Shown in pieces: positions 709 to 62,503 of a stretch of 64,000 nucleotides of DNA (its first letter is position 1; each line of letters opens with the position of its first letter). Under the pieces are notes generated by a model. It searched no databases. It worked only from the letters and a program-made list of their open reading frames with translations, and had not been told where the DNA came from. Position numbers and translations under genes: made by a program. Source of the DNA: Thermoflexus sp. (GTDB lineage: Bacteria > Chloroflexota > Anaerolineae > B4-G1 > SLSP01); assembly GCA_020722365.1 (NCBI GenBank), contig DYKY01000001.1, forward strand, positions 15,357 through 79,356. The letters run 5' to 3'.

Positions 709-751
709 CATCCCTGCACAAGCCCTCCGGCCGGCAGGGATGTTTCTTTGT
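709..751 (+). terminator. Intrinsic terminator acting as the riboswitch expression platform.
   Basis: CATCCCTGC...GCAGGGATG forms a 9-bp stem, followed by TTTCTTTGT. Confidence 0.65.
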
Positions 752-784
752 CAACGGATTGAGCGGATTGAAACGGATTTTTTC
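747..784 (+). repeat. Copy (a) of the triple-heptamer motif TTTGTCAACGGATTGA(G/A)CGGATT..ACGGATTTTTT.
   Basis: Three direct (A/G)CGGATT heptamers at ~10-11-bp spacing. Near-identical copies are at 1683-1719 and on the reverse strand at 62463-62503. Each sits upstream of a gene in the same orientation. Confidence 0.7.
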
Positions 785-840
785 TCGGAAGGCAGACTTT
801 CGACCTTCGACTTCTGGCTTTGGACTATTCCGAGGAGACT

Positions 841-1491
841 ATGCGTATTGTAATCTTCGCCAACGGCATCATCGACAATCCCGCCGAAGCCGCCCGGTGG
901 GTGCGGCCCGGCGATTGCGTCGTCGCAGCGGACGGGGGGACGCGGCACGCGCTGGCCGCCGGCCTCACACCCGACCACGTCATCGGCGACCTGGATTCGC
1001 TTTCGCCGGAGCAGCGCGCGCGCCTCGAAACCGCCGGAACGACGCTGCACGTGCATCCGCCCGCCAAGGATGAAACCGATCTTGAGCTGGCGCTGATGTG
1101 GGCGGCGGCGCAACCAGACGTGACGGAGATCGTCATCCTGGGCGCGCTCGGCGGACGCCCGGATCAGGCGCTTGCCAACCTGCTGCTGCTCGCGTTACCG
1201 GCGTTGGCGGGGCGCGAGACCGTCATCGCCGACAATGCGTGGACAATCCGTTGTCTGCGCGGCGGCGAGACAATGACCTTCCGTGGCCGGCCCGGCGACA
1301 CGCTCTCGCTGCTCCCGCTCGGCGGCGACGCTGCCGGCGTCACAACCGAGGGTCTGGTGTATCCGCTGCGCGACGAAACGCTACACTTCGGCCTCACGCG
1401 CGGTGTCAGCAACGTGTTCGACGGCGAGACGGCAACCGTCTCCCTGCGCACCAGCCTTTTATGGTGTTTGCATCAAAACCAGCGATTTTAA
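841..1491 (+). CDS. thiN: Thiamine pyrophosphokinase.
   Basis: VVAADGGTRHALAAGLTPDHVIGDLDSL matches the TPK catalytic-domain signature (AADgG ... GDfDS). RBS GAGGAG precedes the ATG at 841. The ORF track start at 820 is probably too long. Confidence 0.7.
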   Translation: MRIVIFANGIIDNPAEAARWVRPGDCVVAADGGTRHALAAGLTPDHVIGDLDSLSPEQRARLETAGTTLHVHPPAKDETDLELALMWAAAQPDVTEIVILGALGGRPDQALANLLLLALPALAGRETVIADNAWTIRCLRGGETMTFRGRPGDTLSLLPLGGDAAGVTTEGLVYPLRDETLHFGLTRGVSNVFDGETATVSLRTSLLWCLHQNQRF

Positions 1492-1682
1492 CCGCAAATC
1501 ACGCGAATCTTCGCTAATTCCAAGAAAGCGTCATCATGAACGGGTTCACCAGCGGGGACGAAAATTTCATCACGGAGGCACAAAGGCCACAGAGTTTTCT
1601 GTATTTTTCCGTGTTCTCCGTGTCTCAGGGGTTTATTTACAAGGAGTCTCCATGTAGGGAACCACACCAACGAGGACTAAAA

Positions 1683-1719
1683 TTTGTCAACGGATTGAAC
1701 GGATTTTAACGGATTTTTT
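1683..1719 (+). repeat. Copy (b) of the triple-heptamer ACGGATT motif, upstream of the thiamine SBP gene.
   Basis: TTTGTCAACGGATTGAACGGATTTTAACGGATTTTTT. Confidence 0.7.
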
Positions 1720-1770
1720 AACTTTCAACACGCAACTTGTAACTTTCAACTATTTTTGAAGGAGGTTGAG

Positions 1771-2832
1771 ATGAAATCGCGTATTGTATTGATTGTAGTT
1801 GCGCTCCTGCTACTTGCCGGATGCGCGAAAGCGACACCGGAGGCGGCGACAGGCGAACCCCGCGAGCTGCGGGTCATGGTCTACGACAGCTTCAGCGTCA
1901 GCGAAGACGTCATCGCGCGCTTTGAGGCCGAAAACAACGCCACGGTGCAGTTCCTCAAGGCCGGCGACGCCGGCAAAATGCTCAACCAGGCCATCCTTTC
2001 GCGCGACAATCCCCAGGCCGACGTGCTCTACGGCGTGGACAACACCTTCCTCAGCCGCGCGCTGGATGCCGACATCTTTGAGCCGTACAAGGCAAAGAAC
2101 CTCACCGCCATCCCCGAAGCGCTGCACCTGGATGACCACTACCGCGTCGTCCCCACCGACTTCGGCGACGTGTGCCTCAATTACGACAAAGCCTACTTCG
2201 ACGAGCACGCGCTCACGGTCCCGCAAAGCCTGGCGGATCTGACGAAGCCCGAATACAAGGGCCTGCTCGTCGTGGAAAACCCTGCCTCGTCGTCGCCGGG
2301 ACTGGCCTTTCTCATCGCCACCATCGGCGTTTTTGGCGAGGATCGCTATTTGGACTTCTGGGCCGACTTGCGCGCCAACGACGTGCTGGTCGTGGACGGC
2401 TGGGACACCGCGTACTACAACGAGTTCAGCGGCGGCGCGTATAGCGAAGGCATCCGCCCGCTCGTCGTGAGCTACGCCACCAGCCCCGCCGCCGAAGTCT
2501 ACTTCAGCGAAGGGGCGCTCACCGAGCCGCCGACCGGCGCCGTCACCGCGCCCGGCACGTGCTTCCGCCAGATCGAATTTGCCGGCATCCTCAAAGGCGC
2601 GGAAAATCGCGACCTCGCCGAAGCCTTCATCGAATTTCTGCTCAGCGACAATTTCCAGGCCGACATCCCGCTGCAAATGTGGGTCTTCCCCGCTAACCCC
2701 AACGTAACCCTGCCGCAAGTCTTTACCGACTTTGCCCTCGAAGCCGCGGAACCCGCCGAAGTCCCCGCTGCCGCCATCGAAACCAACCGCGAGCAGTGGA
2801 TCGAGGCGTGGGCGGAAGTTGTTCTTAAGTAG
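1771..2832 (+). CDS. thiB: Thiamine/TPP ABC transporter substrate-binding lipoprotein (ThiB/TbpA-like).
   Basis: Signal peptide with lipobox LLLAGC and a periplasmic-binding-protein (iron/thiamine type) fold pattern. GGAGG RBS precedes the ATG at 1771. Lies in the riboswitch-controlled operon. Confidence 0.6.
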   Translation: MKSRIVLIVVALLLLAGCAKATPEAATGEPRELRVMVYDSFSVSEDVIARFEAENNATVQFLKAGDAGKMLNQAILSRDNPQADVLYGVDNTFLSRALDADIFEPYKAKNLTAIPEALHLDDHYRVVPTDFGDVCLNYDKAYFDEHALTVPQSLADLTKPEYKGLLVVENPASSSPGLAFLIATIGVFGEDRYLDFWADLRANDVLVVDGWDTAYYNEFSGGAYSEGIRPLVVSYATSPAAEVYFSEGALTEPPTGAVTAPGTCFRQIEFAGILKGAENRDLAEAFIEFLLSDNFQADIPLQMWVFPANPNVTLPQVFTDFALEAAEPAEVPAAAIETNREQWIEAWAEVVLK

Positions 2833-2850
2833 ACGGTAGACGGTAGACGG
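2829..2850 (+). repeat. Tandem heptamer repeat (GTAGACG)x3 between the SBP and permease genes.
   Basis: GTAGACGGTAGACGGTAGACGG. A related array lies at 63692-63727. Confidence 0.8.
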
Positions 2851-2870
2851 GGGGAGAGAGGGAGCATAAC

Positions 2871-4559
2871 GTGCCTGACAACATCGATCACGAATCACAA
2901 ATCACGAGTCGCAACTCGCAGCTCTTAACTCGCAACTCGCTCCTCGCTCTTCCCCTTCTCTTTCTCCTGCTCTTTTACTTCTACCCGTTGGGCGAAATTT
3001 TCCGCGTGAGCCTCACGTGGGACGCGGGGCCGGCGCCGGATGCGCTGCTTGCACGGCTGTTCGGCCCGGCGACGCTGCGGACACTCGGCTTCACGGCGGG
3101 ACAGGCACTGCTCTCCACGGCGCTGACGCTGCTGCTCGGCCTGCCGGGAGCTTACGTTGTCGCCCGCTACGACTTCCCCGGCAAGCGCCTGCTCAACGCG
3201 CTGACCACCGTGCCGTTCGTGCTGCCCACCGTCGTCGTGGCGGCGGCGTTCACGGCAGTCCTCGGCCCGCGCTCGCCGCTCAATCAAATGCTGATGAACG
3301 CCTTCGACCTCGCGCACCCGCCGCTCGACCTGCGTTACACGCTAGGCGCGATCCTGCTGGCACACGTCTTCTACAACTACACGCTCGTGCTGCGCATCGT
3401 CGGCGGCTTCTGGGCCAACCTCGACCCGCACCTGGAACAGGCCGCGCGCACGCTCGGCGCGTCGCCGTGGCGCGCCTTCGTCGACGTGACGCTGCCCCTG
3501 CTCATGCCCGCGCTCGCCGCCGCCGCCCTGCTCGTCTTCATCTTCTGCTTTACCAGCTTCGGCGTGATCCTCATCCTCGGCGGGCCGCGCTTCGCCACAC
3601 TCGAAGTCGCCATCTACCGCCAGGCCATCGACATGGGCAACTTTCCGCTCGCCGCCGGGCTGTCGTTCGTCCAAATCCTCTGCACCCTCGCATTGACCGT
3701 CGTCTACACCCGGCTGCAAGGCCGGCTGGCCCGTCCTCTGGAATTGCGCCCGCGGTGGATTACACAACGCCGCCCGCGCACATGGGGCGAAATCGCCTTC
3801 GTGCTCGCCAACGTCGGGCTGGGCGCGGCGCTCCTGGGATTGCCGCTCGTGACGCTCGCCGCCCGCTCCTTCGACGCCGGCCTGCGCTACTACACCGCCC
3901 TCTTCGAGAACCCGCGCGGCTCCATCTTCTACGTGCCGCCGGTCGCCGCGGTGGGCAATTCCGTCAAATTTGCGTTGGGGACGATGGCCCTGGCGCTGCT
4001 GCTCGGTGTGCTTACCGCGACGGCGCTCTACCGCCGCAAACAAGGGTGGATGCTGGACGCGCTGTTTATGCTGCCACTCGGCACCTCCGCCGTCACGCTC
4101 GGCCTGGGCTACCTGCTGGCAATGGCGCGCCCGCCGCTGGCCCTGCGCGGTACGCCCGCCCTCATCGTCTTCGGGCACACCCTTGTCGCGCTGCCGTTCG
4201 TCGTGCGCAACGTTATGCCCGCGCTGCAATCGATCCGCCCATCGCTGCGCGAGGCCGCCGCCACGCTCGGCGCGCCGCCGGCCCGCGTCTTTGCGGAAGT
4301 GGACCTGCCCATCGTCTGGCGCGCGCTTGCCGTCGGTGCAGTCTTCGCCTTCACCGTCTCCATGGGCGAATTCGGCGCCACGTCGATGATCGCCCGCCCG
4401 GAACTCCCCACCATCCCCATCGCCATTTACCGCTTCCTCTCCCAGGCCGGCGCGCTCAACTACGGGCAAGCCCTGGCGATGTCCACCCTCCTCATGGCCG
4501 TCTGCGTCGTCGGCTTCGTCGCCATCGAAAGCCTCCGCCCGCCGGGGAGCGAGTGGTGA
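2871..4559 (+). CDS. thiP: ABC transporter permease with duplicated transmembrane domains (ThiP-like, thiamine/iron(III) type).
   Basis: 562 aa with ~12 predicted TM helices and two copies of the ABC permease EAA-like loop. GTG start with a strong RBS GGGAGAGAGGGAG. Confidence 0.65.
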   Translation: MPDNIDHESQITSRNSQLLTRNSLLALPLLFLLLFYFYPLGEIFRVSLTWDAGPAPDALLARLFGPATLRTLGFTAGQALLSTALTLLLGLPGAYVVARYDFPGKRLLNALTTVPFVLPTVVVAAAFTAVLGPRSPLNQMLMNAFDLAHPPLDLRYTLGAILLAHVFYNYTLVLRIVGGFWANLDPHLEQAARTLGASPWRAFVDVTLPLLMPALAAAALLVFIFCFTSFGVILILGGPRFATLEVAIYRQAIDMGNFPLAAGLSFVQILCTLALTVVYTRLQGRLARPLELRPRWITQRRPRTWGEIAFVLANVGLGAALLGLPLVTLAARSFDAGLRYYTALFENPRGSIFYVPPVAAVGNSVKFALGTMALALLLGVLTATALYRRKQGWMLDALFMLPLGTSAVTLGLGYLLAMARPPLALRGTPALIVFGHTLVALPFVVRNVMPALQSIRPSLREAAATLGAPPARVFAEVDLPIVWRALAVGAVFAFTVSMGEFGATSMIARPELPTIPIAIYRFLSQAGALNYGQALAMSTLLMAVCVVGFVAIESLRPPGSEW

Positions 4560-4674
4560 ATGAGCGAATGGGAGAATCAGCGAATAAAAGAATGGGAAAT
4601 CAAGCATCGAGCATCCGGCTTCAAACAACGACAACTCGACTAACGACTATCAGACTAGCGACTACAGGACTAAA

Positions 4675-5727
<1,053 letters not shown>

Positions 5728-5825
5728 CCATCAATCCAGGCTTCCGGCGTCAGCACCGGCAGTAGATCGCGCAACTGCCCCCACCGCTGTCGGTCGCGGA
5801 TTGTGAATTTCCAGGCGAAAAACCC

Positions 5826-5854
5826 TTGACAAAGGGAAAAACCGGCTGTATAAT
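5826..5854 (+). promoter_or_regulatory. Consensus sigma70 promoter (TTGACA-17bp-TATAAT).
   Basis: Exact -35 TTGACA at 5826-5831 and exact -10 TATAAT at 5849-5854, separated by a 17-nt spacer. Confidence 0.7.
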
Positions 5855-5861
5855 CAATTAT

Positions 5862-5875
5862 AGAACATCTGTTCT
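5862..5875 (+). promoter_or_regulatory. Putative LexA operator (Cheo/Gram-positive-type SOS box) number 1.
   Basis: AGAACATCTGTTCT is a perfect GAAC-N4-GTTC palindrome overlapping the predicted +1 of the consensus promoter. Confidence 0.55.
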
Positions 5876-5923
5876 AATAATATCACACCACGCTTTGGCG
5901 TGTTCTTTTTTCGCTTTAGGATT

Positions 5924-5937
5924 AGAACATTTGTTCA
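5924..5937 (+). promoter_or_regulatory. Putative LexA operator (Cheo-type SOS box) number 2.
   Basis: AGAACATTTGTTCA, GAAC-N4-GTTC. A short hairpin plus T-tract (5886-5910) lies between the two boxes. Confidence 0.5.
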
Positions 5938-5947
5938 TAAATAATTA

Positions 5948-6023
5948 AGACTACAAAAGTCTCAGCCCGTACTTCAACGCAAGTATTTGCTTGAACAGGT
6001 GTCGCACAAGACTTTTGTAGTCT
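5948..6023 (+). repeat. 15-bp perfect inverted repeat (AGACTACAAAAGTCT ... AGACTTTTGTAGTCT) with a ~46-nt loop, in the 5'UTR of the FtsK-paralog operon.
   Basis: Read directly in the sequence. The loop contains a smaller hairpin CAAGtatttgCTTG. The RBS GAGGAG and the ATG at 6044 follow. Confidence 0.8.
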
Positions 6024-6043
6024 CAGTATTGTGAGGAGACCCT

Positions 6044-7171
6044 ATGTCACGTTCACTACGTCCTTATTTGGAATACCAGGCCGATCGGGTAGAAGCCGTG
6101 CTGGCCGCGCATCGTACACCGGGACGCGTCACGGGAGGTACAGTCGGGCCTCGGTCGATCCGCTTCTTCTTGAATCCCGCACCGCACATCCGCTTTGCGT
6201 CGATCAAGCGTTTGGCCGATGACCTGGCGCTGGCGATGCAGGTCCCCACCCTCAACGTCGACCGGGGCAAGGAAGGCGTGATTCTGGAATTCTCCAACCC
6301 CAATCCGCGCCCGGTGACGCTGCTCAATCTGTTACCTGAAGCCATGCCTATGCCGGTAGCTACAGCGCTGTTAGGTCTCACCGACGACGGCGCGCCCTTG
6401 CTCGCGCGGCTATCCGCGCCAGAGGTAGCACACATTCTCGTCTCCGGCACTACGGGGTCGGGCAAGTCGGTGCTGTTGCGGACCATAGCGGCGTCGCTGG
6501 CGCTCACCCACACGCCAAGTCTGCTGCAAATGCTGTGCATCGATCCAAAAGGTCGCGCGTTTCCGGCTTTTAACGGCATCCCCCATCTCACCCGTAAGCC
6601 GATTGTCGATGTAGCGGAGGCATTAGAGGCGCTGCGCTCGGTGGTACGCGTGATGGACTCCCGCGACCGGCGTGGCGAAGCGCCGATCGCCAGCCGCAAC
6701 GCTATCGTTTCGCACGATGAAGGGATACAAGGCACATCCATCCCACGCATCGTCATCTTCATCGACGAGCTGGCCGATTTAGTGATGCAGGGCGAAGCGC
6801 CGTTCACCGACACGTTGACACGCCTTGTCCAGCGTGGCAGACAGGCAGGCATCCACGTCATCGCGGCGACACAGCACCCCTCGTCCGCCATCCTCAGCAG
6901 CGTGATGCGGGCGAATTTTCCACTGCGGCTGGTAGGTCGTGTCGTCTCAGCGGATGATGCCAGAGTCGCATCGGGGAGAGCGGGGACAAACGCGCATCTT
7001 CTCAATGGACGCGGGGATTTTCTGGCAGTCAGTGGTGGGGAAAATCCGATTCGATTTCAAGTAGCCTATATCGATGAGAAGGAGCTTAGACAACAAATGG
7101 CAATGCTGAGCGGCACTGTGGCGCCCTATTCAGCACAGTTGCCGGTATTGGCCTATAGGAGTGCAGCATAA
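6044..7171 (+). CDS. Soluble FtsK/SpoIIIE-family DNA-translocase motor paralog (alpha/beta ATPase domains only).
   Basis: Walker A SGTTGSGKSV and Walker B IVIFIDELADL, collinear with the motor domain of the canonical FtsK at 16085-18496 (IDPK..GIPHL.., ATQ..S). Lacks the N-terminal membrane domain and the gamma winged-helix domain. Confidence 0.8.
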   Translation: MSRSLRPYLEYQADRVEAVLAAHRTPGRVTGGTVGPRSIRFFLNPAPHIRFASIKRLADDLALAMQVPTLNVDRGKEGVILEFSNPNPRPVTLLNLLPEAMPMPVATALLGLTDDGAPLLARLSAPEVAHILVSGTTGSGKSVLLRTIAASLALTHTPSLLQMLCIDPKGRAFPAFNGIPHLTRKPIVDVAEALEALRSVVRVMDSRDRRGEAPIASRNAIVSHDEGIQGTSIPRIVIFIDELADLVMQGEAPFTDTLTRLVQRGRQAGIHVIAATQHPSSAILSSVMRANFPLRLVGRVVSADDARVASGRAGTNAHLLNGRGDFLAVSGGENPIRFQVAYIDEKELRQQMAMLSGTVAPYSAQLPVLAYRSAA

Positions 7172-8460: not shown

Positions 8461-8705
8461 TGCTATTCAATCTAGCAGCGCGCCGTGAACCGATCCGGCT
8501 CATCGCACGGAACCACAACTACTTTCCACAGCGGTTCATGTGGCGCGGGCAACAATACCGCGTGCATTCAGTCATCCGCGCGTGGACGGAGATGAAGCGG
8601 AAAGGGACCTTGTACTTCTTTCGCGTGCGTTGCCCGGAGGGCGTCTTCGATCTGTGCCAGGATTTGTCGCTCAATGCCTGGTATCTGGCACGGCAGGTAG
8701 AGTAG
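8460..8705 (+). CDS. Hypothetical small protein (81 aa).
   Basis: ATG overlaps the upstream stop (TGATG). No recognisable domain. Confidence 0.4.
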   Translation: MLFNLAARREPIRLIARNHNYFPQRFMWRGQQYRVHSVIRAWTEMKRKGTLYFFRVRCPEGVFDLCQDLSLNAWYLARQVE

Positions 8706-8762
8706 GAAGATGGATAGAGATGGGGAGAGAGATAGAGATAGAGGGCGGGATTGGAGGGAAAA

Positions 8763-11970: not shown

Positions 11971-12053
11971 CGTGACCTCCTGAAGATAGCCTTCAGCTAT
12001 CAGCTTTCAGCCAGCAGTTTGCTAGCTGAAAGCCGACTGCTGATGGCTGACCG

Positions 12054-20114: not shown

Positions 20115-20130
20115 GTCGTATGTTTTTATC

Positions 20131-20178
20131 AGCAGATTGAGCAGATTGAGCAGATTTTTGTGGCTGACAAAAAATCTA
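20131..20178 (+). repeat. Tandem 9-mer (CAGATTGAG)x3 followed by an inverted repeat (AGATTTTTGTggctgACAAAAAATCT), likely a bidirectional terminator.
   Basis: Read directly in the sequence between convergent genes (HAD on +, NYN on -). Confidence 0.6.
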
Positions 20179-20201
20179 CTCCATTTGCTGGTTCGAAATC
20201 T

Positions 20202-24247: not shown

Positions 24248-24534
24248 ACTTTACTCTCTGCATCTACGAACTACACGGCGTGACAACTCTTAACAATTTT
24301 CTTTAACGCACTCAACTACCACCAACACCTCCCCAACAGCGTCTCTGCGTGCAGGTCCAGATTGTTGGCGCAACGCCAGCGACAGGAAGGCGTCTTTTTC
24401 TGCAACCGACCCGCCCCCTCAACGTAATCCTATTATAATCAGGGATACCATTTCCCACAAACCGATTTGCCCCTTACGCAGCCCTGACTATAATGCTCTT
24501 AAGTTCACTCGTTAAATCTGTTGACAAAGGAGGC

Positions 24535-25011
24535 ATGATGTCCGACGATAAAATGCAATACCCGGAGCGCGCCGGTGACGTGGGCACGTTGATGGGATGG
24601 TTGAAAGACTTCTTCGGCCATTTCCGCCTGGCCTGGGAATTGTTATGGGATGAGCGCGTCCCATTTGTCACCAAGATCATCCCCATTCTCACGCTCCTCT
24701 ACGTCATCTCACCCGTGGACCTTGTCTCGGGTTTGGCATTTCCAGGAATCGGTGCATTGGATGATCTGACGATTTTCCTGATCGGGATGCGGCTCTTTGT
24801 CGATGTGTGCCCGCCGGCCCTGGTAACCGAACACCAGGCAAAGGACCAACTCGAAATGAGCGCCGCACCGCAGGACGAAGAGCAACCGGCTTCATCGACG
24901 TGGAGGGTTCCACCTACAGCCCAGATCATCGATTTGGAAGCCGAAGAAGTCTCCGGCACAGCCGCAACCGCCGAAGAACCCCCCAAACCGCCCCTCCCCC
25001 ACGTGTGGTAG
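24535..25011 (+). CDS. DUF1232/YkvA-family membrane protein.
   Basis: IIPILTLLYVISPVDLVSGLAFPGIGALDDLTIFLIGMRLF matches the family pattern (LYxISPiDlIPDfIPgiGyLDD). RBS AAAGGAGG. Confidence 0.6.
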   Translation: MMSDDKMQYPERAGDVGTLMGWLKDFFGHFRLAWELLWDERVPFVTKIIPILTLLYVISPVDLVSGLAFPGIGALDDLTIFLIGMRLFVDVCPPALVTEHQAKDQLEMSAAPQDEEQPASSTWRVPPTAQIIDLEAEEVSGTAATAEEPPKPPLPHVW

Positions 25012-30446: not shown

Positions 30447-30600
30447 GTTTCCTCCTCGAATGTAAGTCGAAAGTTCAAAGTCGAACGTCCAAAGTCTGCA
30501 AGTCAAGGCGCTACTTTTGACGGCCTGCTTTGATTCTTTCTCATTATAGACTGAGGCGCAGTTAACGCAATCTACGCGCTGAAGCAAACTTCGCTCAAAA

Positions 30601-35175: not shown

Positions 35176-35424
35176 ATGGCACGATGTCCCGAATGTAACA
35201 GCAAATTGGTCATCCCGCCTGATATAGCGCGGTGGGATCGTATTTTCTGCGAAGCATGTGGCACTGAACTCGAAGTTGTGGATGTCAATCCTCTGGAACT
35301 CGAGGCAGTCTACGATTTCGAGGATGACGACAATGCACTGGATGAGCTAGAGGAAGATGAAGACGATCTGGAATGGGAAGAAGAAGATGATGATGATGAT
35401 GAAGATGAAGAAGACGAATGGTAG
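35176..35424 (+). CDS. LysW-like zinc-ribbon protein with a ~40-aa polyacidic C-terminal tail ending in EDEW.
   Basis: MARCPECNSKL...FCEACGTELEVVDVNPLELE parallels LysW (CPECGAEL...CEDCGAELEVVGLDPLRLE). Then comes DDDNALDELEEDEDDLEWEEEDDDDDEDEEDEW. Confidence 0.5.
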   Translation: MARCPECNSKLVIPPDIARWDRIFCEACGTELEVVDVNPLELEAVYDFEDDDNALDELEEDEDDLEWEEEDDDDDEDEEDEW

Positions 35425-54283: not shown

Positions 54284-54289
54284 GGCGGG

Positions 54290-55018: not shown

Positions 55019-55027
55019 ATTGAAATA

Positions 55028-55861: not shown

Positions 55862-56976
55862 GGGTTGTATGCCTCCAGCAAGGCTTGATAGATACGCTCG
55901 ACTTTAGCCATTTCGGTATAATAGTCGTTGCGTTCCAGGATAACCTGGCGATTAAAGGCCCCAAACACACGTCTGATGGCTGCACTTTCCAGGAGATAGA
56001 CAATTTTGTCCGCCAGTATTGCCGGATTGCGTAAGGGAACTAAAAAACCACCTTTGCCCTCTGCCACCCACTGGCGATTATCTCCAAAATCCGTGATGAC
56101 GACCGGCAGCGCACATGCCATCGCTTCGGCGGTGCTGGCCGCCAGCCCCCCATCGGAGAGGGAAGTGGAAACGTAGACGTCGGAGAGTGTCAGATAATCC
56201 GGCAATTCGTGATTGGGAATGGCTCCCACAAACTTGAGCTGTTCAGCGATGCCCAAAGTGCTTGCCAATTGTTCCAGTTGAGTGCGCAGCGCCCCATTGC
56301 CGGCAATAATGAAGCGCGCGTCGGGAACTTTCTCCAGAACCAATGGCGCTGCCCGTACCAGCGATTCAATATCATAGATGGGGTTGAGGCTGCGCAAGGA
56401 AATCACGACCGGGCAGTGTGGCGCTATTCCCAACCGCGCACGCAAAGCGTCGTTCTGCGGCGCGGGACAGAATCTTTTGGTGTCCACGCCGAAGTAAATC
56501 ACCCGAATTTTGGCTTGAGCCGCCCCCAATGCCGTCATGGTTTCTACCAGGTGGTCGGCATCACAGGTGATGAAATCGGCGTTTTTTAGCGCAAATTTAA
56601 CGCTCCACTTGAAAAACCATGATTCACCGGGCTTGACGACCACGTCGGATCCCCAGGGCGTGATCACAAAGGGATGAAACTGACATAATGCGCCCCAGAA
56701 GCCATAGCCTAGCGCGTCATGGGCGTGGAGGAGGTCGGGTTTGAGCTTACGGATGTTCCGATAAATTTGCAGAACTTGAAAAGCCAGATTGATGCCTCTA
56801 ACCGGAGTATTCCCTATTTTTAGTGGCTGCAAAAGGTGTAGCCTGACATCCGCCGGCGGGTTGGCGCCGAAGGGCTTTTGCGAAATTAAATGGACTTCAT
56901 GACCAACGTCGGCGAAATACTTAACCCACCTTTGTGTATGAATCGAACTGGCATCAGCAAGATAACAGAGTTTCAC
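55858..56976 (-). CDS. GT4-family glycosyltransferase.
   Basis: GT-B fold, 372 aa. Confidence 0.6.
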   Translation of the reverse strand: MKLCYLADASSIHTQRWVKYFADVGHEVHLISQKPFGANPPADVRLHLLQPLKIGNTPVRGINLAFQVLQIYRNIRKLKPDLLHAHDALGYGFWGALCQFHPFVITPWGSDVVVKPGESWFFKWSVKFALKNADFITCDADHLVETMTALGAAQAKIRVIYFGVDTKRFCPAPQNDALRARLGIAPHCPVVISLRSLNPIYDIESLVRAAPLVLEKVPDARFIIAGNGALRTQLEQLASTLGIAEQLKFVGAIPNHELPDYLTLSDVYVSTSLSDGGLAASTAEAMACALPVVITDFGDNRQWVAEGKGGFLVPLRNPAILADKIVYLLESAAIRRVFGAFNRQVILERNDYYTEMAKVERIYQALLEAYNP

Positions 56977-56982
56977 AGCGCC

Positions 56983-57210
56983 TCACTCAGTCACAATCGC
57001 CGTCTGCGCTCCGTGTGATCCCGAACCGACGCCCAGGTTCACATCCGGCTGCGGCAGATCCAGCTCGGCGAAGAACACTGCCGACATATTCTCATCATAG
57101 TGCTGCCCGGTATGCACCAGGATTTCGGTATGATTCTGCCGCAGGGCGCGACTTACCGGCCCGGCCTTAATGAATTGCGGGCGCGCACCGACGATGGAAA
57201 CTATTTTCAT
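56983..57210 (-). pseudogene. Truncated N-terminal fragment (~75 aa) of a UDP-GlcNAc 2-epimerase.
   Basis: [23 protein letters not shown]...[12 protein letters not shown] matches a WecB N-terminus but terminates after ~75 codons. An intact wecB is at 42836-43975. Confidence 0.6.
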
Positions 57211-57223
57211 CACGAATGCATCC

Positions 57224-57733
57224 TCATACCACACACCGACAACCACATTCCAGATCCAATGTGACAGGCGAGAGATAATGATCGGTTTTTTCGCGCCGAA
57301 AGTGTAACACCAGAGAGGTATAGGGGTCAAACACCACGACATCTTTGATGCCTTGCGCCAGATAAAAACGTGGCGCAAATTCCAGGTCTTTGGCCTCATA
57401 CCCTTTACTCACGACCTCAATCACCGCTTCCGGTATCAGGGTGATGGCGGTTTCTTCTTCCGCAGGTCTGCTGCAAAAGATGGCAATATCTGGCCGCTTC
57501 AGGGAACCATCGGGAAAAGTAACATAAACATCCGAAATGTGCAGACAGGCACACCCTTCGGCTACGGTATGTGGTCGAGGCGTGGGTTGAATCGTCGCGC
57601 GAATACGATCAATCGCTTCTTGATGTTTCCACACCGGGTGCGCTTCCCACAAAGGCAATCCCCCTACGATTTCCAGGCGCACGCCCACATCATCGGCTTG
57701 TTGAAATAGATGTTCCAGACTGCTTTGCGCCAT
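57224..57733 (-). CDS. Uma2-family (DUF820) PD-(D/E)xK endonuclease-like protein.
   Basis: 169 aa. Motifs ...EAVIEVVS...[13 protein letters not shown] typical of Uma2. Confidence 0.6.
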
Positions 57734-57749
57734 AACGTTTGTATCTCTC

Positions 57750-59069
57750 TTACCCTTGCCCCACCCGCCGGTAAATCAACCCGGCTCGCTGCGCCTGTTC
57801 CGCACTGAACGCGCCGCGTCCATCCACCACAATCGGCGTGGTTAGCGCGGCCCGGAGTGCGCGCAGGTCTATGTTCTGATACTCCGTATGTTTGACCATC
57901 ACCACGACCGCATTGCATCCCTGCGCCATCGCCAGCACGTTGCCCTGATAACCCGGCACGAAGGGGTCATGAACCAGCACCTCCGCACTCCATTCCCGCA
58001 ACCACGTCGCCAGCACCTCGCTGGGACTGTTGCGCGTATCGTCGGAGTCTTCCAGGTAAGCGTAGCCCAACACCAGAATGCGCGTCTCTTCCAACTCCTT
58101 GCCGGCGATCTCCAGGGTCTCTTCCAGCAATTTGAGGATGTGCAACGGCATCCCATCATTGACGGCGCGCGCGGCCGGGATGAGCCGAATGGGAATTTTG
58201 TTCCACGCTTCGTAGGCCAGCAGCCACGGGTCTTTGGTGATGCAGTGTCCGCCGACGCCGGCGCCCGGATAGAGCATCATCCGCCCTGGCGACTTGTTCA
58301 CCAGCTCGCGCACTTTCCACACATCCCCGCCGACCGCCTCGCAGATCAACGCCACTTCATTGGCAAAGGCGATGTTCACGTCACGGTAGGCGTTCTCCAC
58401 CGTCTTCACCAGCTCCGCCGTCACGCAATCCGCCGGGTCGAGATCCGCCTGGACGATGTGACGATAGAGTGCGATCATCGTTTGCGCCGTTTCCGGCGTT
58501 TCACCGCCGCAGACGCGACTCACGCCGCGCAAATTGGCGAGCAACTTCCCCGGCATCACCCGCTCTGGGCAATGACCGAGGTAAAAATCAACGTTGGCGC
58601 GCTTGCCGGACGATTCTTCCAGCAAAGGTTTGACCAGGCGCGCCATCGTGCCGGGCGCGATGGTCGATTCAACAATAATCAGCGCACCGGACTGCAACAC
58701 CGGGCCGAGATCGCGCAAGGCGCTCCGCAAGGCAACGTACTGCGGCACGTGCTGCTCATCCACTGGCGTCTCCACACTGATGGTGACGACATCGCAATCG
58801 TGCAGGTCAGCATACTGCGTGGTTGTGTGCAGCCGCCCCTCCGCAACAACCGTTGCCAACAGCTCAGCCAGCCCCGGCTCGCGTCCCTCGATAGGCGAAA
58901 TCCCGGCGTTGATCGCATTCACGCGCTCCGCCTTGAGGTCCACGCCTACCACGTTGAATCCTGCCTCGGCGAACAGACACGCCACCGGCAATCCCACGTA
59001 CCCCAGCCCGATTACACCGAGCCGGGCAGTCTGCGTAGAAATTCTCTGCTGCAAAAAATCCAAACTCAC
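57750..59069 (-). CDS. UDP-N-acetyl-D-glucosamine/mannosamine 6-dehydrogenase (WbpA/WecC family).
   Basis: N-terminal NAD motif LGVIGLGYVGLPVA and the UDP-glucose/GDP-mannose dehydrogenase family pattern. Confidence 0.8.
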   Translation of the reverse strand: MSLDFLQQRISTQTARLGVIGLGYVGLPVACLFAEAGFNVVGVDLKAERVNAINAGISPIEGREPGLAELLATVVAEGRLHTTTQYADLHDCDVVTISVETPVDEQHVPQYVALRSALRDLGPVLQSGALIIVESTIAPGTMARLVKPLLEESSGKRANVDFYLGHCPERVMPGKLLANLRGVSRVCGGETPETAQTMIALYRHIVQADLDPADCVTAELVKTVENAYRDVNIAFANEVALICEAVGGDVWKVRELVNKSPGRMMLYPGAGVGGHCITKDPWLLAYEAWNKIPIRLIPAARAVNDGMPLHILKLLEETLEIAGKELEETRILVLGYAYLEDSDDTRNSPSEVLATWLREWSAEVLVHDPFVPGYQGNVLAMAQGCNAVVVMVKHTEYQNIDLRALRAALTTPIVVDGRGAFSAEQAQRAGLIYRRVGQG

Positions 59070-59070
59070 C

Positions 59071-60075
59071 CTACACCTCGATCACGCACTGCGTTTTACC
59101 AGATTCGACGACCGCCAATGCCAGACGTAAAGCAACCAATCCGTCAACGCCACTTACCGGCACAGGAGTGTTGTTCAGCACCGCAGATGTGAAGGCTTCC
59201 AGTTCGGCCCGTAAAGGCTCGTAACGTTGGATGGGATAACGCACCATCCGCCCCTCACGCACACCCTTAAGGATGCTGAGATGGTTCCAGGCCGAGCCAC
59301 TCACTTCGGCGTTCTCGTAGAAGAAGAGATCTTGCATAAGATCATCAGCGCGGAACATCCCCTTCTCACCGAGCACCACAACCTCGCGCACCTTTTGCGG
59401 CGTCAGCCAGTTGATGTCCAACACGCCGGTCATCTCATTGTCGAAGCGCAAGAGTGCCGTCACCAAATCCTCGTGCTCCGTGTGAATACGCTGCTCCGTC
59501 TCGGCAAAGACGCGCACCGGCTCGGCTCCACTGATGAAGCGCATCAAGTCCAGATCGTGCGGTGCCAGATCAATAACCACGCCCACATCCCGCACGCGGG
59601 GTGGAAACGGTCCCACGCGCCGGCACACGATCTGGAAAATCTTCCCCAATTCACCTGCCGCCAGGTGCGCCTTCAACGCCTGGATTGCCGGGCTGAAGCG
59701 CATGATATGGCCGACCATCAAGCGCCGCCCAAGCGCCTCGGCATAGTCGATGAGCGTCTGCGCCTCCTCCACAGTTGCAGCAATCGGCTTCTCGACCAGC
59801 ACATCGGCGCCGGCGCGCATCGCCATTTCCGCCACTTCCCGGTGGTAGCGCGTCGGGACGGCAACCGTGACCACATCCGGTTGCTCGTGTTCCAGCAGTT
59901 CGCGGTAATCCACGTAGGCCGGGACACCATGCTTGGCAGCGATCTGTTGCCCCATCTGTGGATTGACGTCCGCCACGCCAACAAGTTTGGTTTGGGCGAT
60001 CTCCGTGTAGACACGCGCATGATGCTGTCCCATCGCGCCAACGCCGATGACAGCGGCTTTCAAGTGTGCGCTCAT
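59071..60075 (-). CDS. Gfo/Idh/MocA-family oxidoreductase (WbpB-like UDP-GlcNAcA 3-dehydrogenase).
   Basis: AVIGVGAMGQHHARVY Rossmann N-terminus. Adjacent to the DegT aminotransferase and an LbH acetyltransferase. Confidence 0.7.
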   Translation of the reverse strand: MSAHLKAAVIGVGAMGQHHARVYTEIAQTKLVGVADVNPQMGQQIAAKHGVPAYVDYRELLEHEQPDVVTVAVPTRYHREVAEMAMRAGADVLVEKPIAATVEEAQTLIDYAEALGRRLMVGHIMRFSPAIQALKAHLAAGELGKIFQIVCRRVGPFPPRVRDVGVVIDLAPHDLDLMRFISGAEPVRVFAETEQRIHTEHEDLVTALLRFDNEMTGVLDINWLTPQKVREVVVLGEKGMFRADDLMQDLFFYENAEVSGSAWNHLSILKGVREGRMVRYPIQRYEPLRAELEAFTSAVLNNTPVPVSGVDGLVALRLALAVVESGKTQCVIEV

Positions 60076-61156
60076 TCGCCCTCCATAAAGCCGTTAACCG
60101 CCGTGACGATGACATCCAAATCGGTTTGAGTCAACGCCGGATGCACCGGCAGCGAGAGCACTTCTTCTGTGGCCCGCTCGGCTTCCGGCAAGTGCTGGGC
60201 GTAGCCCAACTGCTGCGTGTAATACGTCTGCTGGTGAATTGCCACGGGATAGTAGATGCCGAATCCGATCCCGTTTGCCTTGAGATGCTCTATCAATGCA
60301 TCGCGACGACCATCAGGGACGCGGATGGTGTACTGGTGGAACACGTGAACGTACCCGTCAGGCGTAACCGGGACGCCAACCCCGCGCAGATTCGCGTTGA
60401 GATAGCGCGCATTGGCGATGCGGGCCGCGTTGAATTGCTCCAGTTTGTGGAGCTGCGCCAACCCAATGGCCGCGTGAACATCGGTCATGCGAAAATTGAA
60501 GCCGAGTTCGTCGTGGTAATAGCGCCGTCTCATCCCATGCTGGCGAATGACCTGGCAGTTCTCGGCAATGCGCGCGTCGTTGGTGGTGATCATACCACCT
60601 TCCGCCGAGGTAATATTTTTGGTGGGATAGAGCGAGAACGTACCCGTTCCCCACGCGCCAGCGCGCTTGCCGTGCAGAGACGCTCCGTGGGATTGGCAGG
60701 CGTCCTCGATCACAACCAGACCATACTTGTCGGCCAAAGTCTGAATCGCGTCCATGTCGGCCATCAGCCCGAACAAGTGCACCGGTAAAATCGCCTTCGT
60801 GCGCGGTGTGATGGCAGCCTCGATCTGCGCCGGGTCCAGGTTGAACGTCGCCGGATCGATGTCCACGAAGACCGGCCTGGCTCCGGTGAACAAGACGCTG
60901 TTCGCCGATGCAATGAACGTAAACGGCGAGGTGATGACCTCATCCCCAGGGCCGATGTCGTGCGCCAGCAGCGCCACGTGCAGCGCCGTCGTCCCGCTGC
61001 TGGTCGCAATCGCATACTGCACGCCGCACATCGCAGCGAAAGCTTCCTCGAAAGCCTTGACTCGTGGCCCTTGCGCCAGCATACCGGAATCCAAAACTTC
61101 AAGAACTGCTTGTTTTTCTTCATCCCCGATGAGGGGTTTTGCAATGGAAATCACTG
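60072..61156 (-). CDS. DegT/DnrJ/EryC1-family aminotransferase (WbpE-like).
   Basis: GDEVITSPFTFIASANSV and PLP-Lys in FSLYPTKNITS. Probable GTG start with a GGAGG RBS. Confidence 0.75.
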
Positions 61157-61762
61157 TGCCTGCCTCCAGATTTTTAATGGGATAGAAAGCATTTCGTGAC
61201 AGTCGGGACACTGCGCGACGATTCTGTCCTCTTCTTCGTGGTCTGCGACCAACCGGTGTCCGCACGCGCACACAAACCCGATCAGCCGCGCCGGATTGCC
61301 GACGACCAACCCGTGCGCGGGCACATCTTTGGTGACGACAGCGCCCGCGCCCACCATCGCCCACTCGCCAACAACGACCTTGGGCAAGATCGTAGAATTC
61401 GCACCGAGCGCCGCCCCGCGCTTGATCACGATCCGCCCCAACACCCAATCGTCGGCGGCTTTCAACGACCCGTCGGAATTCACCGCACGCGGGAAATTGT
61501 CGTTGGTGAAGCACACGTGCGGGCCAACGAAGACGCCATCTTCGATCTCGACGCCGTGGTAAATCGAGACGTAGTTCTGCACCTTGACGTTGTCGCCAAT
61601 CCGCACGCCAAAGTCCACGTAGACGCCCTTGCCGAGGATACAGTTTTGGCCGATCTGCGCATCCTCGCGCACCTGGCACTGATGCCATATGCTGGTACCG
61701 GAACCGATGTGCGCCTTGTCCGAAACGTCCGCCGTAGGGTGAATTCTCACATTGTCATGCAT
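61151..61762 (-). CDS. Left-handed beta-helix (hexapeptide-repeat) N-acetyltransferase (WbpD-like) with a C-terminal zinc ribbon.
   Basis: Hexapeptide repeats IGSGTSIWHQCQVREDAQIGQNCILGKGVYV and C-terminal CACG...CPDC. Confidence 0.7.
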   Translation of the reverse strand: MHDNVRIHPTADVSDKAHIGSGTSIWHQCQVREDAQIGQNCILGKGVYVDFGVRIGDNVKVQNYVSIYHGVEIEDGVFVGPHVCFTNDNFPRAVNSDGSLKAADDWVLGRIVIKRGAALGANSTILPKVVVGEWAMVGAGAVVTKDVPAHGLVVGNPARLIGFVCACGHRLVADHEEEDRIVAQCPDCHEMLSIPLKIWRQAQ

Positions 61763-61763
61763 A

Positions 61764-62387
61764 CTACCCCCGCTCCTCCAACAACCCCCGTATCCGCGCC
61801 GCCACCATCTCGATCGCCACCTCGTTGAAGCCGCCCTCGGGGATGATCACGTCGGCATAACGCTTGCTCGGCTCGACGAACTCCTGATGCATCGGGCGTA
61901 CCGTCGCCATATACTGTGCAATGACCGACTCGAACGTCCGCCCCCGCTCCTGCATATCGCGCTGGAGGCGGCGAATCAAGCGGATGTCACTGGCCGTATC
62001 GATGAAGAGCTTCACGTCAAACAACCTGCGCAATTCCGGCTCGGCAAAAATGAGGATGCCTTCCACCAGCACGATCGGAGCCGGCTCCACGTGGATGGTC
62101 TCATCGGTGCGCACGTGCCGGGTAAAATCATAGACCGGGATTTCGGCAGGATAGCCGTTGCGCAGCAAAGTCAGATGTTCGATCATCAGGCTCGTTTCCA
62201 GCGCATCCGGATGATCGAAGTTCAGGCTTTGGCGTTCCTCCAACGTCAGGTGACGTAAATCCTTGTAATAGGCATCGTGCGGGATACACGCGATGTGCTC
62301 CGCGCCGACGCGCTCCAGGATGCGGTTCGCCACCGTCGTCTTGCCAGACCCGGTTCCCCCCGCCACACCAATGATAATCGAACGCAT
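61764..62387 (-). CDS. udk: Uridine kinase.
   Basis: P-loop GVAGGTGSGKTT and the Udk family pattern. Confidence 0.85.
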   Translation of the reverse strand: MRSIIIGVAGGTGSGKTTVANRILERVGAEHIACIPHDAYYKDLRHLTLEERQSLNFDHPDALETSLMIEHLTLLRNGYPAEIPVYDFTRHVRTDETIHVEPAPIVLVEGILIFAEPELRRLFDVKLFIDTASDIRLIRRLQRDMQERGRTFESVIAQYMATVRPMHQEFVEPSKRYADVIIPEGGFNEVAIEMVAARIRGLLEERG

Positions 62388-62462
62388 AGACCCTCCCTTC
62401 AGACAGTCGGGTAGTCTTGAGTCAAGTAGTCTTGAGTAGCCGAAATTTCCAGATCGCGTTTT

Positions 62463-62503
62463 GGCTGAAAAATCCGCTCGGTCCGTTCAATCCGTTGACA
62501 AAT
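62463..62503 (-). repeat. Copy (c) of the triple-heptamer CGGATT motif (reverse strand), upstream of udk.
   Basis: Reverse complement reads TTTGTCAACGGATTGAACGGACCGAGCGGATTTTTCAGCC. Confidence 0.65.

Follow-up and report, generated by a model that had tools for sequence, protein, structure and literature searches.

The closest described counterparts of the element considered here are the REP/BIME/REPIN repeats of Proteobacteria, associated with RAYT, which are extragenic, present in high copy number and co-transcribed in intercistronic positions, and which occur as singles, as hairpin-forming inverted pairs and in mosaic clusters, with several families per genome and occasional intragenic copies (PMC3733652; PMC3116915). 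A classical REP unit is a short imperfect palindrome, and a further criterion is a terminal tetranucleotide tag, either GTAG or CGTC, on one side (PMC3733652). MITEs, such as the Correia elements of Neisseria, have inverted arms of ~30 nt with TG...CA termini, lie beside genes, are transcribed into mRNA hairpins and show insertion polymorphism between related genomes. Heptamer direct repeats, namely the cyanobacterial STRR and the TAACTGA repeats of Beggiatoaceae, Cyanobacteria and Bacteroidetes, are short, intergenic and mostly directed toward a nearby start codon, with unrelated genes downstream; an RNA-level role has been proposed for the TAACTGA repeats located upstream of start codons (MacGregor, 2015; PMC4679880). 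Finally, putative mobile promoters are highly similar upstream regions that precede non-homologous genes in one genome (Matus-Garcia et al., 2012; PMC3488235).

An element with features of all these systems occurs in the window, the whole 64,000-nt stretch of Thermoflexus sp. DNA that was analysed. The first-pass annotation compared it with the boxes of OmpR/PhoB-type response regulators, and mentioned a lineage-specific promoter class and a REP-type element as alternatives. Arrays of the OmpR/PhoB kind, such as the pho box, consist of direct repeats approximately one helical turn apart, with a period of 11 bp.

The module in the window

Three look-alike copies were found at the positions originally annotated and, as had also been claimed, all of them point to the next start codon, that of TPK (ATG 841), of the thiamine SBP (~1772) or of udk (ATG 62387, minus strand) (Table 1). 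The 20-mer TTGTCAACGGATTGARCGGA has exactly three matches in the window, even when up to three mismatches are allowed, against a chance expectation of 0.00 obtained from 100 dinucleotide-preserving shuffles. The lone heptamer RCGGATT is not enriched (34 occurrences in the window, 23.7 expected), and the non-randomness is limited to the composite module.

Copy 1 is laid out as a T-run, a TTGTCA head, three (A/G)CGGATT units and a second T-run, and the conserved unit is the octamer AACGGATT rather than a heptamer. In its basic form the module comprises ~37 nt, in which a TTGTC head behind a T-rich lead-in is followed by three AACGGATT octamers 9–10 nt apart and by a T-run, and its boundaries are sharp, at position −1 and at about +35. 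The periodicity of ~10.5 bp first assigned to it had to be corrected, since the measured spacing of the units is 9–10 nt (mean ~9.5 nt): copies 1 and 2 have a first interval of 9 nt and a second of 10 nt (units at 754/763/773 and 1690/1699/1709), and in copy 3 both intervals are 9 nt. The description as a triple array holds for copies 1 and 2, but in copy 3 the middle unit is degenerate (ACGGACC) and there is no clean triple. The three copies are thus real, while the spacing, the clean triple in copy 3 and the promoter-proximal position of copy 1 did not survive.

This last point follows from the organization of the TPK leader. Copy 1 begins at the terminator U-run of the TPP riboswitch and is placed ~170 nt downstream of the promoter; being located behind promoter, riboswitch and terminator, it belongs to the transcribed leader and not to the promoter. 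Its position is retained at the orthologous loci L019, L027 and L066, where equivalent promoter boxes (TGGTATAAT/TGCTATAAT) are present. Promoter, riboswitch, terminator, module, leader and gene follow one another in this order with the TPP riboswitch in the window and at these three loci, with an FMN riboswitch in L042 and with a cobalamin riboswitch in L091. The TPK orthologues share 81–84% protein identity and 54–69% identity at synonymous third positions, and the module at the orthologous sites differs at only 2–3 of 37 positions in an alignment read by eye; its conservation across species thus exceeds that of synonymous sites.

Copy 2 sits within a lineage-specific insertion of ~230 nt in the TPK-thiB spacer, where several repeat families form a mosaic; the orthologous spacer of L019 comprises 40 nt and lacks the module, and that of L066 carries a CACGAAT-type palindrome. 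Sequence related to the GCGAAT-type unit at the start of the spacer also occurs in L097, and the conserved motif ahead of copy 2 precedes the module in L012 and L024 as well. At copy 3, the upstream ORF terminates inside the module (TTG TCA ACG GAT TGA, stop at 62487–62489).

The leaders that adjoin the module (TTTCAAC, GACTTTC) are perfect head-to-tail heptamer repeats. A GACTTTC-type leader without the module lies downstream of a TATAAT box at ~30460–30500 (minus strand), and another in L074. Two further elements were recognized in the window. The sister element of the AGCAGATT family occupies the spacer between convergent genes (folding z = −2.0 and −2.6), and a degenerate reversed copy falls behind a TATAAT box (24489–24494) and ahead of an SD/ATG (24528–24537), hence inside a 5′ leader.

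Table 1. Features of the window associated with the module, in order of position.
Feature	Position	Strand	Details
Sigma-70-type promoter (CTAACA, 16 nt, TG-n-TATAAT)	549..576	+	Drives the riboswitch-TPK transcript
TPP riboswitch aptamer	600..708	+	RF00059, 69.2 bits, E = 1.6e-11
Riboswitch terminator hairpin and U-run, running into copy 1	707..749	+	−22.8 kcal/mol, z = −4.45
Module, copy 1	747..784	+	TTTGTCAACGGATTGAGCGGATTGAAACGGATTTTTT; upstream of TPK
GACTTTC-type heptamer-repeat leader, copy 1 to TPK SD	795..829	+	
GCGAAT-type sister unit, start of TPK-thiB spacer	1490..1519	+	30-mer 93% identical in L096
Remnant of reversed CACGGA-type sister unit	1604..1626	-	Reads TTTTTCCGTGTTCTCCGTGTCTC on the + strand
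Conserved motif AGGAGTCYCC..GGGA..CAC.CCAACG	1641..1672	+	10–12 nt upstream of copy 2
Module, copy 2	1683..1719	+	TTTGTCAACGGATTGAACGGATTTTAACGGATTTTTT; upstream of thiamine SBP (thiB)
TTTCAAC heptamer tandem repeat, copy 2 to thiB SD	1716..1751	+	Five copies
Sister element, AGCAGATT family	20126..20193	+	Three units at 9-nt spacing and partial inverted arm
Degenerate reversed copy	24506..24527	-	CACTCGTTAAATCTGTTGACAA on the + strand
Repeat-rich leader CTCAAGACTA/CTTGACTCAAGACTA, copy 3 to udk SD	62404..62443	-	
Module, copy 3	62463..62503	-	TTTGTCAACGGATTGAACGGACCGAGCGGATTTTTC; upstream of udk

Abundance, forms and placement

Public sequences contain more than 113 loci with the exact 20-mer, and no fewer than 95 of these loci belong to 21 Anaerolineae/Chloroflexota genome bins, with 11–19 copies in each of the richest bins among the matches listed. 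In total, 124 sites were located across 729 kb of sampled sequence. All these copy numbers are biased by the selection of 8-kb chunks that contain a match, and the source genomes are mostly metagenome bins; by extrapolation, each genome would have near-identical copies numbering around a hundred or more. Such a profusion of copies, whatever the gene, is essentially the distribution that the first-pass annotation had itself set against its regulatory reading. The neighbouring genes share no function, and the 20 downstream genes tested fall in unrelated Pfam families.

The module appears alone, in tandem arrays (L042, L103, L087) and in head-to-head inverted pairs predicted to form hairpins of 25–30 bp. 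The pairs account for 22 of the 124 sites, reach folding energies near −40 kcal/mol (z = −5.35) and have the TTGTCAACGGATTG arm first in ~11 of 14 cases, whereas the folding of single modules does not exceed that of shuffled sequences (z = −0.2 to −0.4). Singles outnumber paired copies ~4.6 to 1 and stop sharply after the T-run; this excess and these ends are not obviously predicted if singles are "decayed halves". Among 37 non-seed arms, conservation is 95% or higher in the octamer cores, and the spacer positions are variable. The same architecture, with other octamers, defines a superfamily (AGCAGATT, CACGAATT, ACACGGAT, GCGAATT, ACAGGATT and CACAGATT), and all three units switch together from one sister family to another.

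In spacers between co-directional genes, forward copies prevail over reverse ones (43 and 12, 78% and 22%; n = 55, p = 3e-5), and the reverse copies directly adjoin the SD. Forward single copies lie at a median of 17 nt past the upstream stop or terminator and 41 nt before the downstream ORF, and the distance from module to start codon is 11–110 nt. The stop codon of the upstream ORF falls inside the module, at nt 13–15, in 12 of the 43 forward copies, and other frames add ~5 more. Convergent spacers hold eight sites and divergent spacers are not enriched (9 of 86 sites; baseline, 62 of 367 spacers). One copy lies in-frame in carB, in the inter-domain linker of CarB (TSTDSTDGTDKER), and others are found in further long ORFs. 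At six loci the module comes directly after the terminator of a riboswitch of one of the three classes (TPP, FMN or cobalamin), and in L064, L016 and L024 sigma-70-like promoters are found 30–55 nt upstream of it. The copies are therefore located in transcribed spacers (after or overlapping upstream stops, at terminator U-runs, in 5′ leaders) and occasionally in coding linkers, which means that the module is co-transcribed with its neighbours.

An 85-nt cassette of module, leader and SD precedes unrelated genes at seven loci (L008, L010, L018, L051, L069, L072, L113), and in L020, L097 and L074 the module stays with the 3′ end of the upstream gene when the downstream gene differs. Among the loci checked, genes flanked by copies are ordinary ones and encode Fpg and OMP decarboxylase/PRTase (Pfam), as well as a protein whose N-terminus appears P-loop-like by eye.

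Comparison with known systems and weighing of the explanations

Taken together, these observations favor, with a probability of roughly 55%, the view that the module is a REP/BIME/MITE-like dispersed repeat that has spread through the Anaerolineae (Chloroflexota) and is co-transcribed with its neighbours. Of the original readings, the REP-type alternative came closest to the evidence, in that there are many copies irrespective of gene, but the strict definition of a REP fails and the placement is non-random with respect to transcription. The module shares with REP/BIME/REPIN elements the high copy number, the extragenic location and the existence of singles, inverted pairs and clusters; in contrast, it consists of three direct repeats within 37 nt, and is found mostly in sense just after stops or in 5′ leaders, and no RAYT gene was seen in the loci checked. 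A single module is no palindrome, hairpins being formed by the paired forms only, and its ends (T-TTGTCAACGG and CGGATTTTT) carry neither GTAG nor CGTC, which sets it apart from the classical REPs. The paired form has the terminal inverted repeats of a MITE and resembles Correia elements in its arms, termini, location beside genes, transcription as mRNA hairpins and insertion polymorphism, but single arms are far commoner than pairs, each arm is internally triplicated, and neither a target-site duplication nor a parent IS was found (inspection of the flanks of ~10 paired copies revealed nothing in common beyond, at most, a single T). No transposase or parent element was seen in the loci. The resemblance to STRR and TAACTGA repeats extends to a distribution across phyla (PMC4679880); however, the module is a discrete unit, with three members fixed at 9–10 nt, a conserved head, a T-run tail and inverted pairs, and not a variable-length array of perfect head-to-tail heptamers. 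Unlike the module itself, the leaders beside it in the window are true repeats of this kind.

The notion of OmpR/PhoB-type boxes that add thiamine-specific, protein-level control to the riboswitch is extremely improbable. Thiamine genes do follow two of the copies in the window and the direct repeats are about one helical turn apart, but udk follows the third, more than 100 others precede unrelated genes, and the module is present in either orientation, in hairpin pairs and in carB, with no coherent regulon. The spacing of 9–10 bp comes near the 11 bp of the pho box but is shorter. The copies are near-identical, and they lie past promoters and terminators rather than at or just upstream of a −35 box, copy 1 being far downstream of its promoter and others 30–55 nt past TATAAT-like boxes. 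The second layer of thiamine control inferred earlier is likewise unsupported, given that copy 1 is part of a riboswitch-controlled leader and that orthologous thiB spacers lack copy 2. A promoter for a lineage-specific alternative or ECF-type sigma factor, with TGTCAAC providing a −35 "AAC", the third CGGA serving as −10 and transcription starting at the terminal T-run, is very unlikely as well. Its geometry would suit the median distances to the flanking features, most co-directional copies are forward, and the recurrent 85-nt cassette, like the 230-nt insert before thiB, recalls mobile promoters (PMC3488235). Nevertheless, such a promoter would bypass TPP, FMN and cobalamin riboswitches at six loci, the 22% of reversed copies would fire into the upstream gene, and copies are present in convergent spacers and inside carB. 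No −10-like hexamer exists, nothing is conserved past the T-run, no promoter-like match with −35/−10 boxes at 16–18 bp overlaps any copy, and the organism uses TTGACA/TATAAT promoters of the canonical type, in some cases immediately before the module; in larger cassettes any promoter lies upstream of it. On this evidence the module is not a promoter, nor is it an operator for particular genes, and in the window it adds no thiamine-specific layer of control.

Two broader functional readings are each unlikely. One extends the response-regulator idea beyond the thiamine genes to the genome at large: the three octamers, one helical turn apart and all on the same side of the DNA, would serve as sites for a multimeric DNA-binding protein, for example a nucleoid-associated protein, a global regulator or a transcriptional roadblock/insulator between transcription units. 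The 9–10-bp phasing, the conserved cores with variable spacers, the concerted change of the three units and the location at gene ends just past terminators agree with this, and both orientations and inverted pairs are natural for double-stranded DNA sites. Against it stand the lack of a coherent regulon and of enrichment in promoter-rich divergent spacers, the copies downstream of promoters and within coding sequence, and the insertion polymorphism; moreover, near-identical, sharp-ended copies are typical of copying and not of independently evolved operators, and no candidate protein was identified. The other, equally doubtful, places the function in the RNA, where an unstructured sense AACGGAUU x3 plus U-run in leaders and intercistronic spacers would be bound by an RNA-binding protein or ribonuclease. 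Transcription of the copies, the prevalence of the sense orientation, the lack of intrinsic structure in singles, the proximity to start codons, the G-poor heptamer-repeat leaders that often come next and the conservation above synonymous sites are consistent with this possibility, and a similar role was proposed for the TAACTGA repeats (PMC4679880). It is weakened by the 12 antisense copies, right beside the SD, among the 55 in co-directional spacers, the sites in convergent spacers, the orthologous thiB spacer devoid of the module and the retention of the module at the 3′ end of upstream genes. In the paired forms the motif would be buried in a stem, and these show no strand asymmetry (−493.5 and −492.7 kcal/mol summed; 12 and 14 G-U pairs). 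In addition, a period of 9–10 nt would be long for the known ring-type RNA binders.

According to the preferred explanation, that of a dispersed repeat, the module would propagate by insertion or duplication, like a non-autonomous REP/BIME/MITE-type element, and selection would purge the copies that are harmful to expression, which would explain the bias toward the sense orientation and toward the reading frame with the earliest stop. Most likely, the phased octamers would be the binding array of a protein that copies or maintains the element, each sister family representing a different "dialect", and the paired forms probably act incidentally as RNA or DNA hairpins. The sense bias, the TTGTCAACGGATTG-first arms, the retention at orthologous sites and the conservation above synonymous sites fit a functional cis-element equally well.

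Possible significance for the Anaerolineae

If the module is an RNA cis-element, it would tune how many unrelated mRNAs are translated or processed, or how stable they are. A further idea, tentative and rather improbable, is that the module and its sister dialects serve as arrays recognised by multimeric, sequence-specific proteins of an uncharacterised family, and mark the boundaries of transcription units. Such arrays, located at gene ends, terminator U-runs and leaders, would span the Anaerolineae and apparently the Zixibacteria, each octamer family would be read by its own paralogue, and the system would amount to a lineage-wide means of insulation, processing or post-transcriptional tuning, spread by the self-copying of its sites.

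Sequence, spacing and forms of the module

In the window, a search for the 20-mer TTGTCAACGGATTGARCGGA that tolerates up to three mismatches finds 748 (+), 1684 (+) and 62482-62501 (-) and no other site, against an expected count of 0.00 from shuffled sequences, and the three sequences that the first-pass annotation had described before TPK, thiB (the thiamine SBP gene) and udk (copies 1, 2 and 3) lie where it had located them. The repeated unit, which it had read as a triple heptamer with a period of about 10.5 nt, is best described as the octamer AACGGATT, and the measured period is about 9.5 nt: successive units are 9 and 10 nt apart in copies 1 and 2 and 9 nt apart throughout in copy 3. 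The triple array holds in copies 1 and 2 and breaks down in copy 3, where the middle unit is the degenerate ACGGACC. The bare heptamer, found 34 times in the window against 23.7 expected, is not enriched; what is non-random is only the composite module of about 37 nt. No promoter-like match overlaps any of the three window copies in a sigma-70 consensus scan, and the RNA structure of single copies does not rise above background (z = -0.2 to -0.4).

Inverted pairs account for 22 of 124 sites, span 53-97 nt and fold into long hairpins, as in L012, where the paired copy reaches -40.7 kcal/mol (z = -5.35; L-numbers denote public loci of about 8 kb sampled for containing the exact 20-mer). Tandem arrays are found in L042, L103 and L087. 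The same three-unit architecture, with 9-10-nt spacing, is also built from other octamers (AGCAGATT, CACGAAT, ACACGGA, GCGAATT, ACAGGATT and CACAGATT), and within each of these sister families a change of octamer affects the three units, and the two arms of a pair, alike. In the paired copies of L012, L013, L043, L061, L092, L107 and L109 the consensus differs between arms, TTGTCAACGGATTGAACGG versus ATGTCAACGGATTCAACGGATG, which produces a recurrent G-G mismatch at the stem's first spacer; the arm's C variant also eliminates the in-frame TGA. In paired copies, folding energy and G-U pairs favour neither the transcribed strand nor its opposite, so selection on an RNA hairpin specifically is not supported.

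Two larger forms were also observed. A cassette of about 85 nt in bins DAOUGD and JAKQHY joins the module to GATCCTMTCATTCYGTAAATCCTGTTATTTT and GGAGG, like a portable leader, and recurs before unrelated genes (L008, L010, L018, L051, L069, L072, L113). At L062 3551-3649, compared with L060 and L049, an insertion of about 97 nt between module and SD holds two short CGGAT-containing palindromes, GGCGGATCACAATCCGCC and GCGCCGGATTATGATCCGGCGC.

Distribution and position relative to genes

When one genome per species was scanned for the exact 20-mer, more than 113 loci were returned, which is a lower bound; at least 95 come from 21 bins labelled Anaerolineae, Anaerolineales or Chloroflexota, and single bins hold 11-19 copies among the matches listed. 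The first-pass annotation had named hundreds of copies placed without regard to gene starts, or none outside the window, as outcomes that would count against its regulatory reading: copies do abound elsewhere, and extrapolation from the five module-related sites in the 64 kb of the unselected window suggests a number per genome of the order of a hundred or more. In a sample of 729 kb, biased toward loci holding a copy, a tolerant search gave 158 arms, which merge into 124 sites. The module has sharp edges, at position -1 and about +35, with nothing conserved outside them in the approximately 100 copies compared, and in 37 arms outside the exact-seed picks variation falls in the head and spacer positions, the octamer cores being at least 95% conserved. 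Twenty downstream genes belong to unrelated families, which include oxidoreductases, sugar-isomerase-like barrels, an aminotransferase, KdpC, Fpg, a class II aminoacyl-tRNA synthetase, a sulfatase, MFS and ABC transporters, AdoHcy hydrolase, Sua5, Rrf2-type and NarL-type regulators, and others.

The TTGTCAACGGATTGAACGGATT motif also occurs on Zixibacteria-binned contigs (L078, L106, L007, L023; 42-45% GC) and on Ignavibacteria-binned L112, just past gene ends (in L112, between nuoB and nuoC), through either horizontal spread or mis-binning. Other matches were set aside: those in Polynucleobacter, L044 (labelled Erythrobacter, same coding context), L005, L006 and L022 are embedded in conserved coding contexts and appear to be chance matches; those in Clostridia, Bacteroidales, Opitutaceae and Caldicoprobacterales have no further units; and two in viral contigs (41-42% GC) are coding chance matches with no third unit.

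With gene calls made by a codon model, single copies in co-directional spacers are found in sense orientation 43 times and in antisense 12 times (p = 3e-5), and the bias extends to about 11 of 14 paired copies. Neither divergent spacers (9 sites) nor convergent ones (8 sites) show an excess of sites over a baseline of 62 and 54 spacers. Sense copies adjoin the upstream gene, at a median of 17 nt from its stop codon. The upstream ORF stops at module nt 13-15 in 12 of the 43, and in about five more it stops in other frames or reads through; such a bias toward the earliest stop frame would be expected from selection on random insertions into gene ends. Copy 3 of the window is itself a case in which the upstream ORF stops within the module (TTG TCA ACG GAT TGA). 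When L074 is compared with L020 and L097, in which the downstream gene differs, the module remains at the end of the upstream gene, and the heptamer leader goes with the downstream gene.

Some copies lie in frame within ORFs. A variant that lacks the TGA encodes TSTDSTDGTDKER in the CarB linker between the two synthetase halves, a PMT_2 glycosyltransferase ORF contains a reversed copy in frame, and OMP-decarboxylase and phosphoribosyltransferase (pyrF-pyrE) domains are joined in one long ORF across a paired copy. The long ORFs that read through modules may be true in-frame insertions or fusions; otherwise they are artefacts of gene calling in stop-free frames.

Features of the window and of sampled loci (positions refer to the window unless a locus is named)
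Feature	Position	Strand	Remarks
Sigma-70-type promoter	549-576		CTAACA, 16 nt, TG-n-TATAAT
TPP riboswitch	600-708		Downstream of the 549-576 promoter
Strong terminator hairpin	After TPP riboswitch		-22.8 kcal/mol, z = -4.45; U-run merges into copy 1
Module copy 1	747-784	+	Before TPK
GACTTTC-type repeat leader, then SD, then TPK start codon	841 (start codon)		3' of copy 1
AGGAGTCYCC motif	1641-1672; L012 ~3180-3208; L024; L045 ~3879	L024: minus	
Module copy 2	1683-1719	+	Before thiB
GCGAAT-type and CACGGA-type units	TPK-thiB spacer		
AGCAGATT-type hairpin element	20126-20193		Fills convergent spacer
Degenerate reversed module copy	24506-24527		Between TATAAT box and SD
Module copy 3	62463-62503	-	Before udk
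Tandem heptamer repeats	1716-1751, 2829-2850, 2887-2940, 4547-4594, 4627-4673, 11988-12048, 30464-30496, 63690-63727		
In-frame module ACGTCAACGGATTCAACGGATGGAACGGAT, giving TSTDSTDGTDKER	L083 1251-1287	minus	Carbamoyl-phosphate synthase large subunit linker
Long ORFs reading through modules	L057 985-2418, L075 2650-4095, L047 3-1490, L062 1-2028		

Riboswitch leaders and the TPK-thiB spacer

The promoters used in the window are of the canonical sigma-70 type. Promoter, TPP riboswitch and terminator all precede copy 1, which therefore lies within a riboswitch-controlled leader, and the order promoter, riboswitch, terminator, module, leader and TPK is common to three other species (L019, L027 and L066). 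A comparable arrangement is found after an FMN riboswitch and terminator, with four tandem modules at a 55-nt period (L042 2296-2760), and after a cobalamin riboswitch and terminator, with one module and a lipoprotein gene (L091 2147-2500). In L064, L016 and L024 the module is preceded, at a distance of 30-55 nt, by a good sigma-70-like promoter. These terminator cases were inspected individually; an automated test for upstream-terminator enrichment was too permissive, with 33% of control positions positive.

The window is syntenic with the Anaerolineae/Chloroflexota loci L019 and L066 at 79-87% nucleotide identity, and a contig of assembly GCA_973415095.1 encodes a TPK protein identical to that of the window. 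Among the window, L019 and L066, TPK is 81-84% identical, and synonymous third positions just 54-69%. The TPK-thiB spacer is 40 nt long and module-free in L019, holds a CACGAAT-type palindrome in L066, and measures about 280 nt in the window (1491-1771), where copy 2 sits inside a mosaic insert of about 230 nt. Several repeat units and what may be a -10-like box, TTTATTTAC, are present in this lineage gain, and thiBPQ may therefore have gained its own leader or promoter, which, speculatively, might partly uncouple it from the upstream TPP riboswitch. A further conserved motif (AGGAGTCYCC..GGGA..CAC.CCAACG), without an Rfam match, precedes the module by 10-12 nt ahead of three unrelated genes; since in L024 it falls just 3' of a TATAAT box, it may be a 5'-terminal leader hairpin.

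The spacers of the window are also full of short tandem heptamers (TTTCAAC, GTAGACG, ATCACAA/TCGCAAC, CGACTAA, TCAGCTN as a hairpin, GACTTTC and CGTCTAC), most of them G-poor and just upstream of the SD, whose copy number varies among the window, L019 and L066; they are similar to the STRR repeats of cyanobacteria and to TAACTGA repeats (PMC4679880). Heptamers are included in the 5' end of the called thiamine ABC permease ORF (2871-2975), and their number differs between species by non-multiples of three, so the true start is probably downstream of the called GTG. A small spacer ORF (35176-35424), which carries CxxC...CxxC motifs and closes with a long acidic tail whose last residues are EW, looks by eye like a candidate zinc-ribbon amino-group carrier (LysW-like) protein.

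Nature of the element and its implications

The best supported reading is that of a dispersed, insertion-type repeat family carried in transcripts, REP/BIME/MITE-like in its behaviour. The first-pass annotation had favoured OmpR/PhoB-type response-regulator boxes, with a lineage-specific promoter class or a REP-type element as alternatives. Both the boxes and the promoter class fail on distribution, position and orientation, and the module is better regarded as transcribed leader than as promoter; a promoter located at the module would bypass three riboswitch classes (TPP, FMN and cobalamin). The REP-type proposal stands as to behaviour and not as to definition: the unit, unlike a strict REP, is non-palindromic and lacks a GTAG or CGTC tag (tag criterion, PMC3733652), and no RAYT gene was seen in the sampled loci. 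It also departs from the definition of a MITE, as no target-site duplication was seen by eye and no parent element was found in the sampled loci, the genes between inverted copies (L057, L009, L069, L109) being ordinary. Likeness to a DnaA box, a sigma-28 promoter or a CsrA site was dropped because the matches are poor.

No Rfam family covers the module, either at the gathering threshold in the window and 34 loci or in an E-value search of 1400-1800; the Rfam searches returned only TPP, FMN and cobalamin riboswitches and tRNAs. Searches of the literature on the sequence, on Anaerolineae repeats and on Chloroflexi REP/RAYT found no description of it. Among published systems the closest are those of REP/REPIN type (PMC3116915, PMC3733652), direct heptamer repeats that lie 5' of start codons, TAACTGA among them (PMC4679880), and cassettes of mobile promoters (PMC3488235). 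The kind of element, dispersed extragenic repeats, is known, and the module itself appears to be undescribed.

The module represents an apparently uncatalogued repeat superfamily in a poorly studied, environmentally dominant class, with an unusual architecture of three phased octamers, concerted dialects (the sister families) and optional hairpin pairing. A false lead is removed, given that there is no evidence here of the second, protein-level control proposed for the thiamine genes, and the repeat will mislead attempts to infer regulons from motifs in Anaerolineae. Gene callers will fuse or extend ORFs across it; in practical terms, it can serve as a marker for annotation and binning of Anaerolineae sequence. 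The repeat reshapes spacers: it is a source of stop codons and of added peptide linkers, and it is placed behind riboswitch terminators. Some results are open to a functional reading, at the RNA level or as a DNA-binding array, namely the retention of the module at orthologous sites, the conservation of octamer cores between variable spacers, the strong sense bias, paired copies included, and a degree of conservation higher than that of synonymous sites. With the last two, the module may well have a genuine function.
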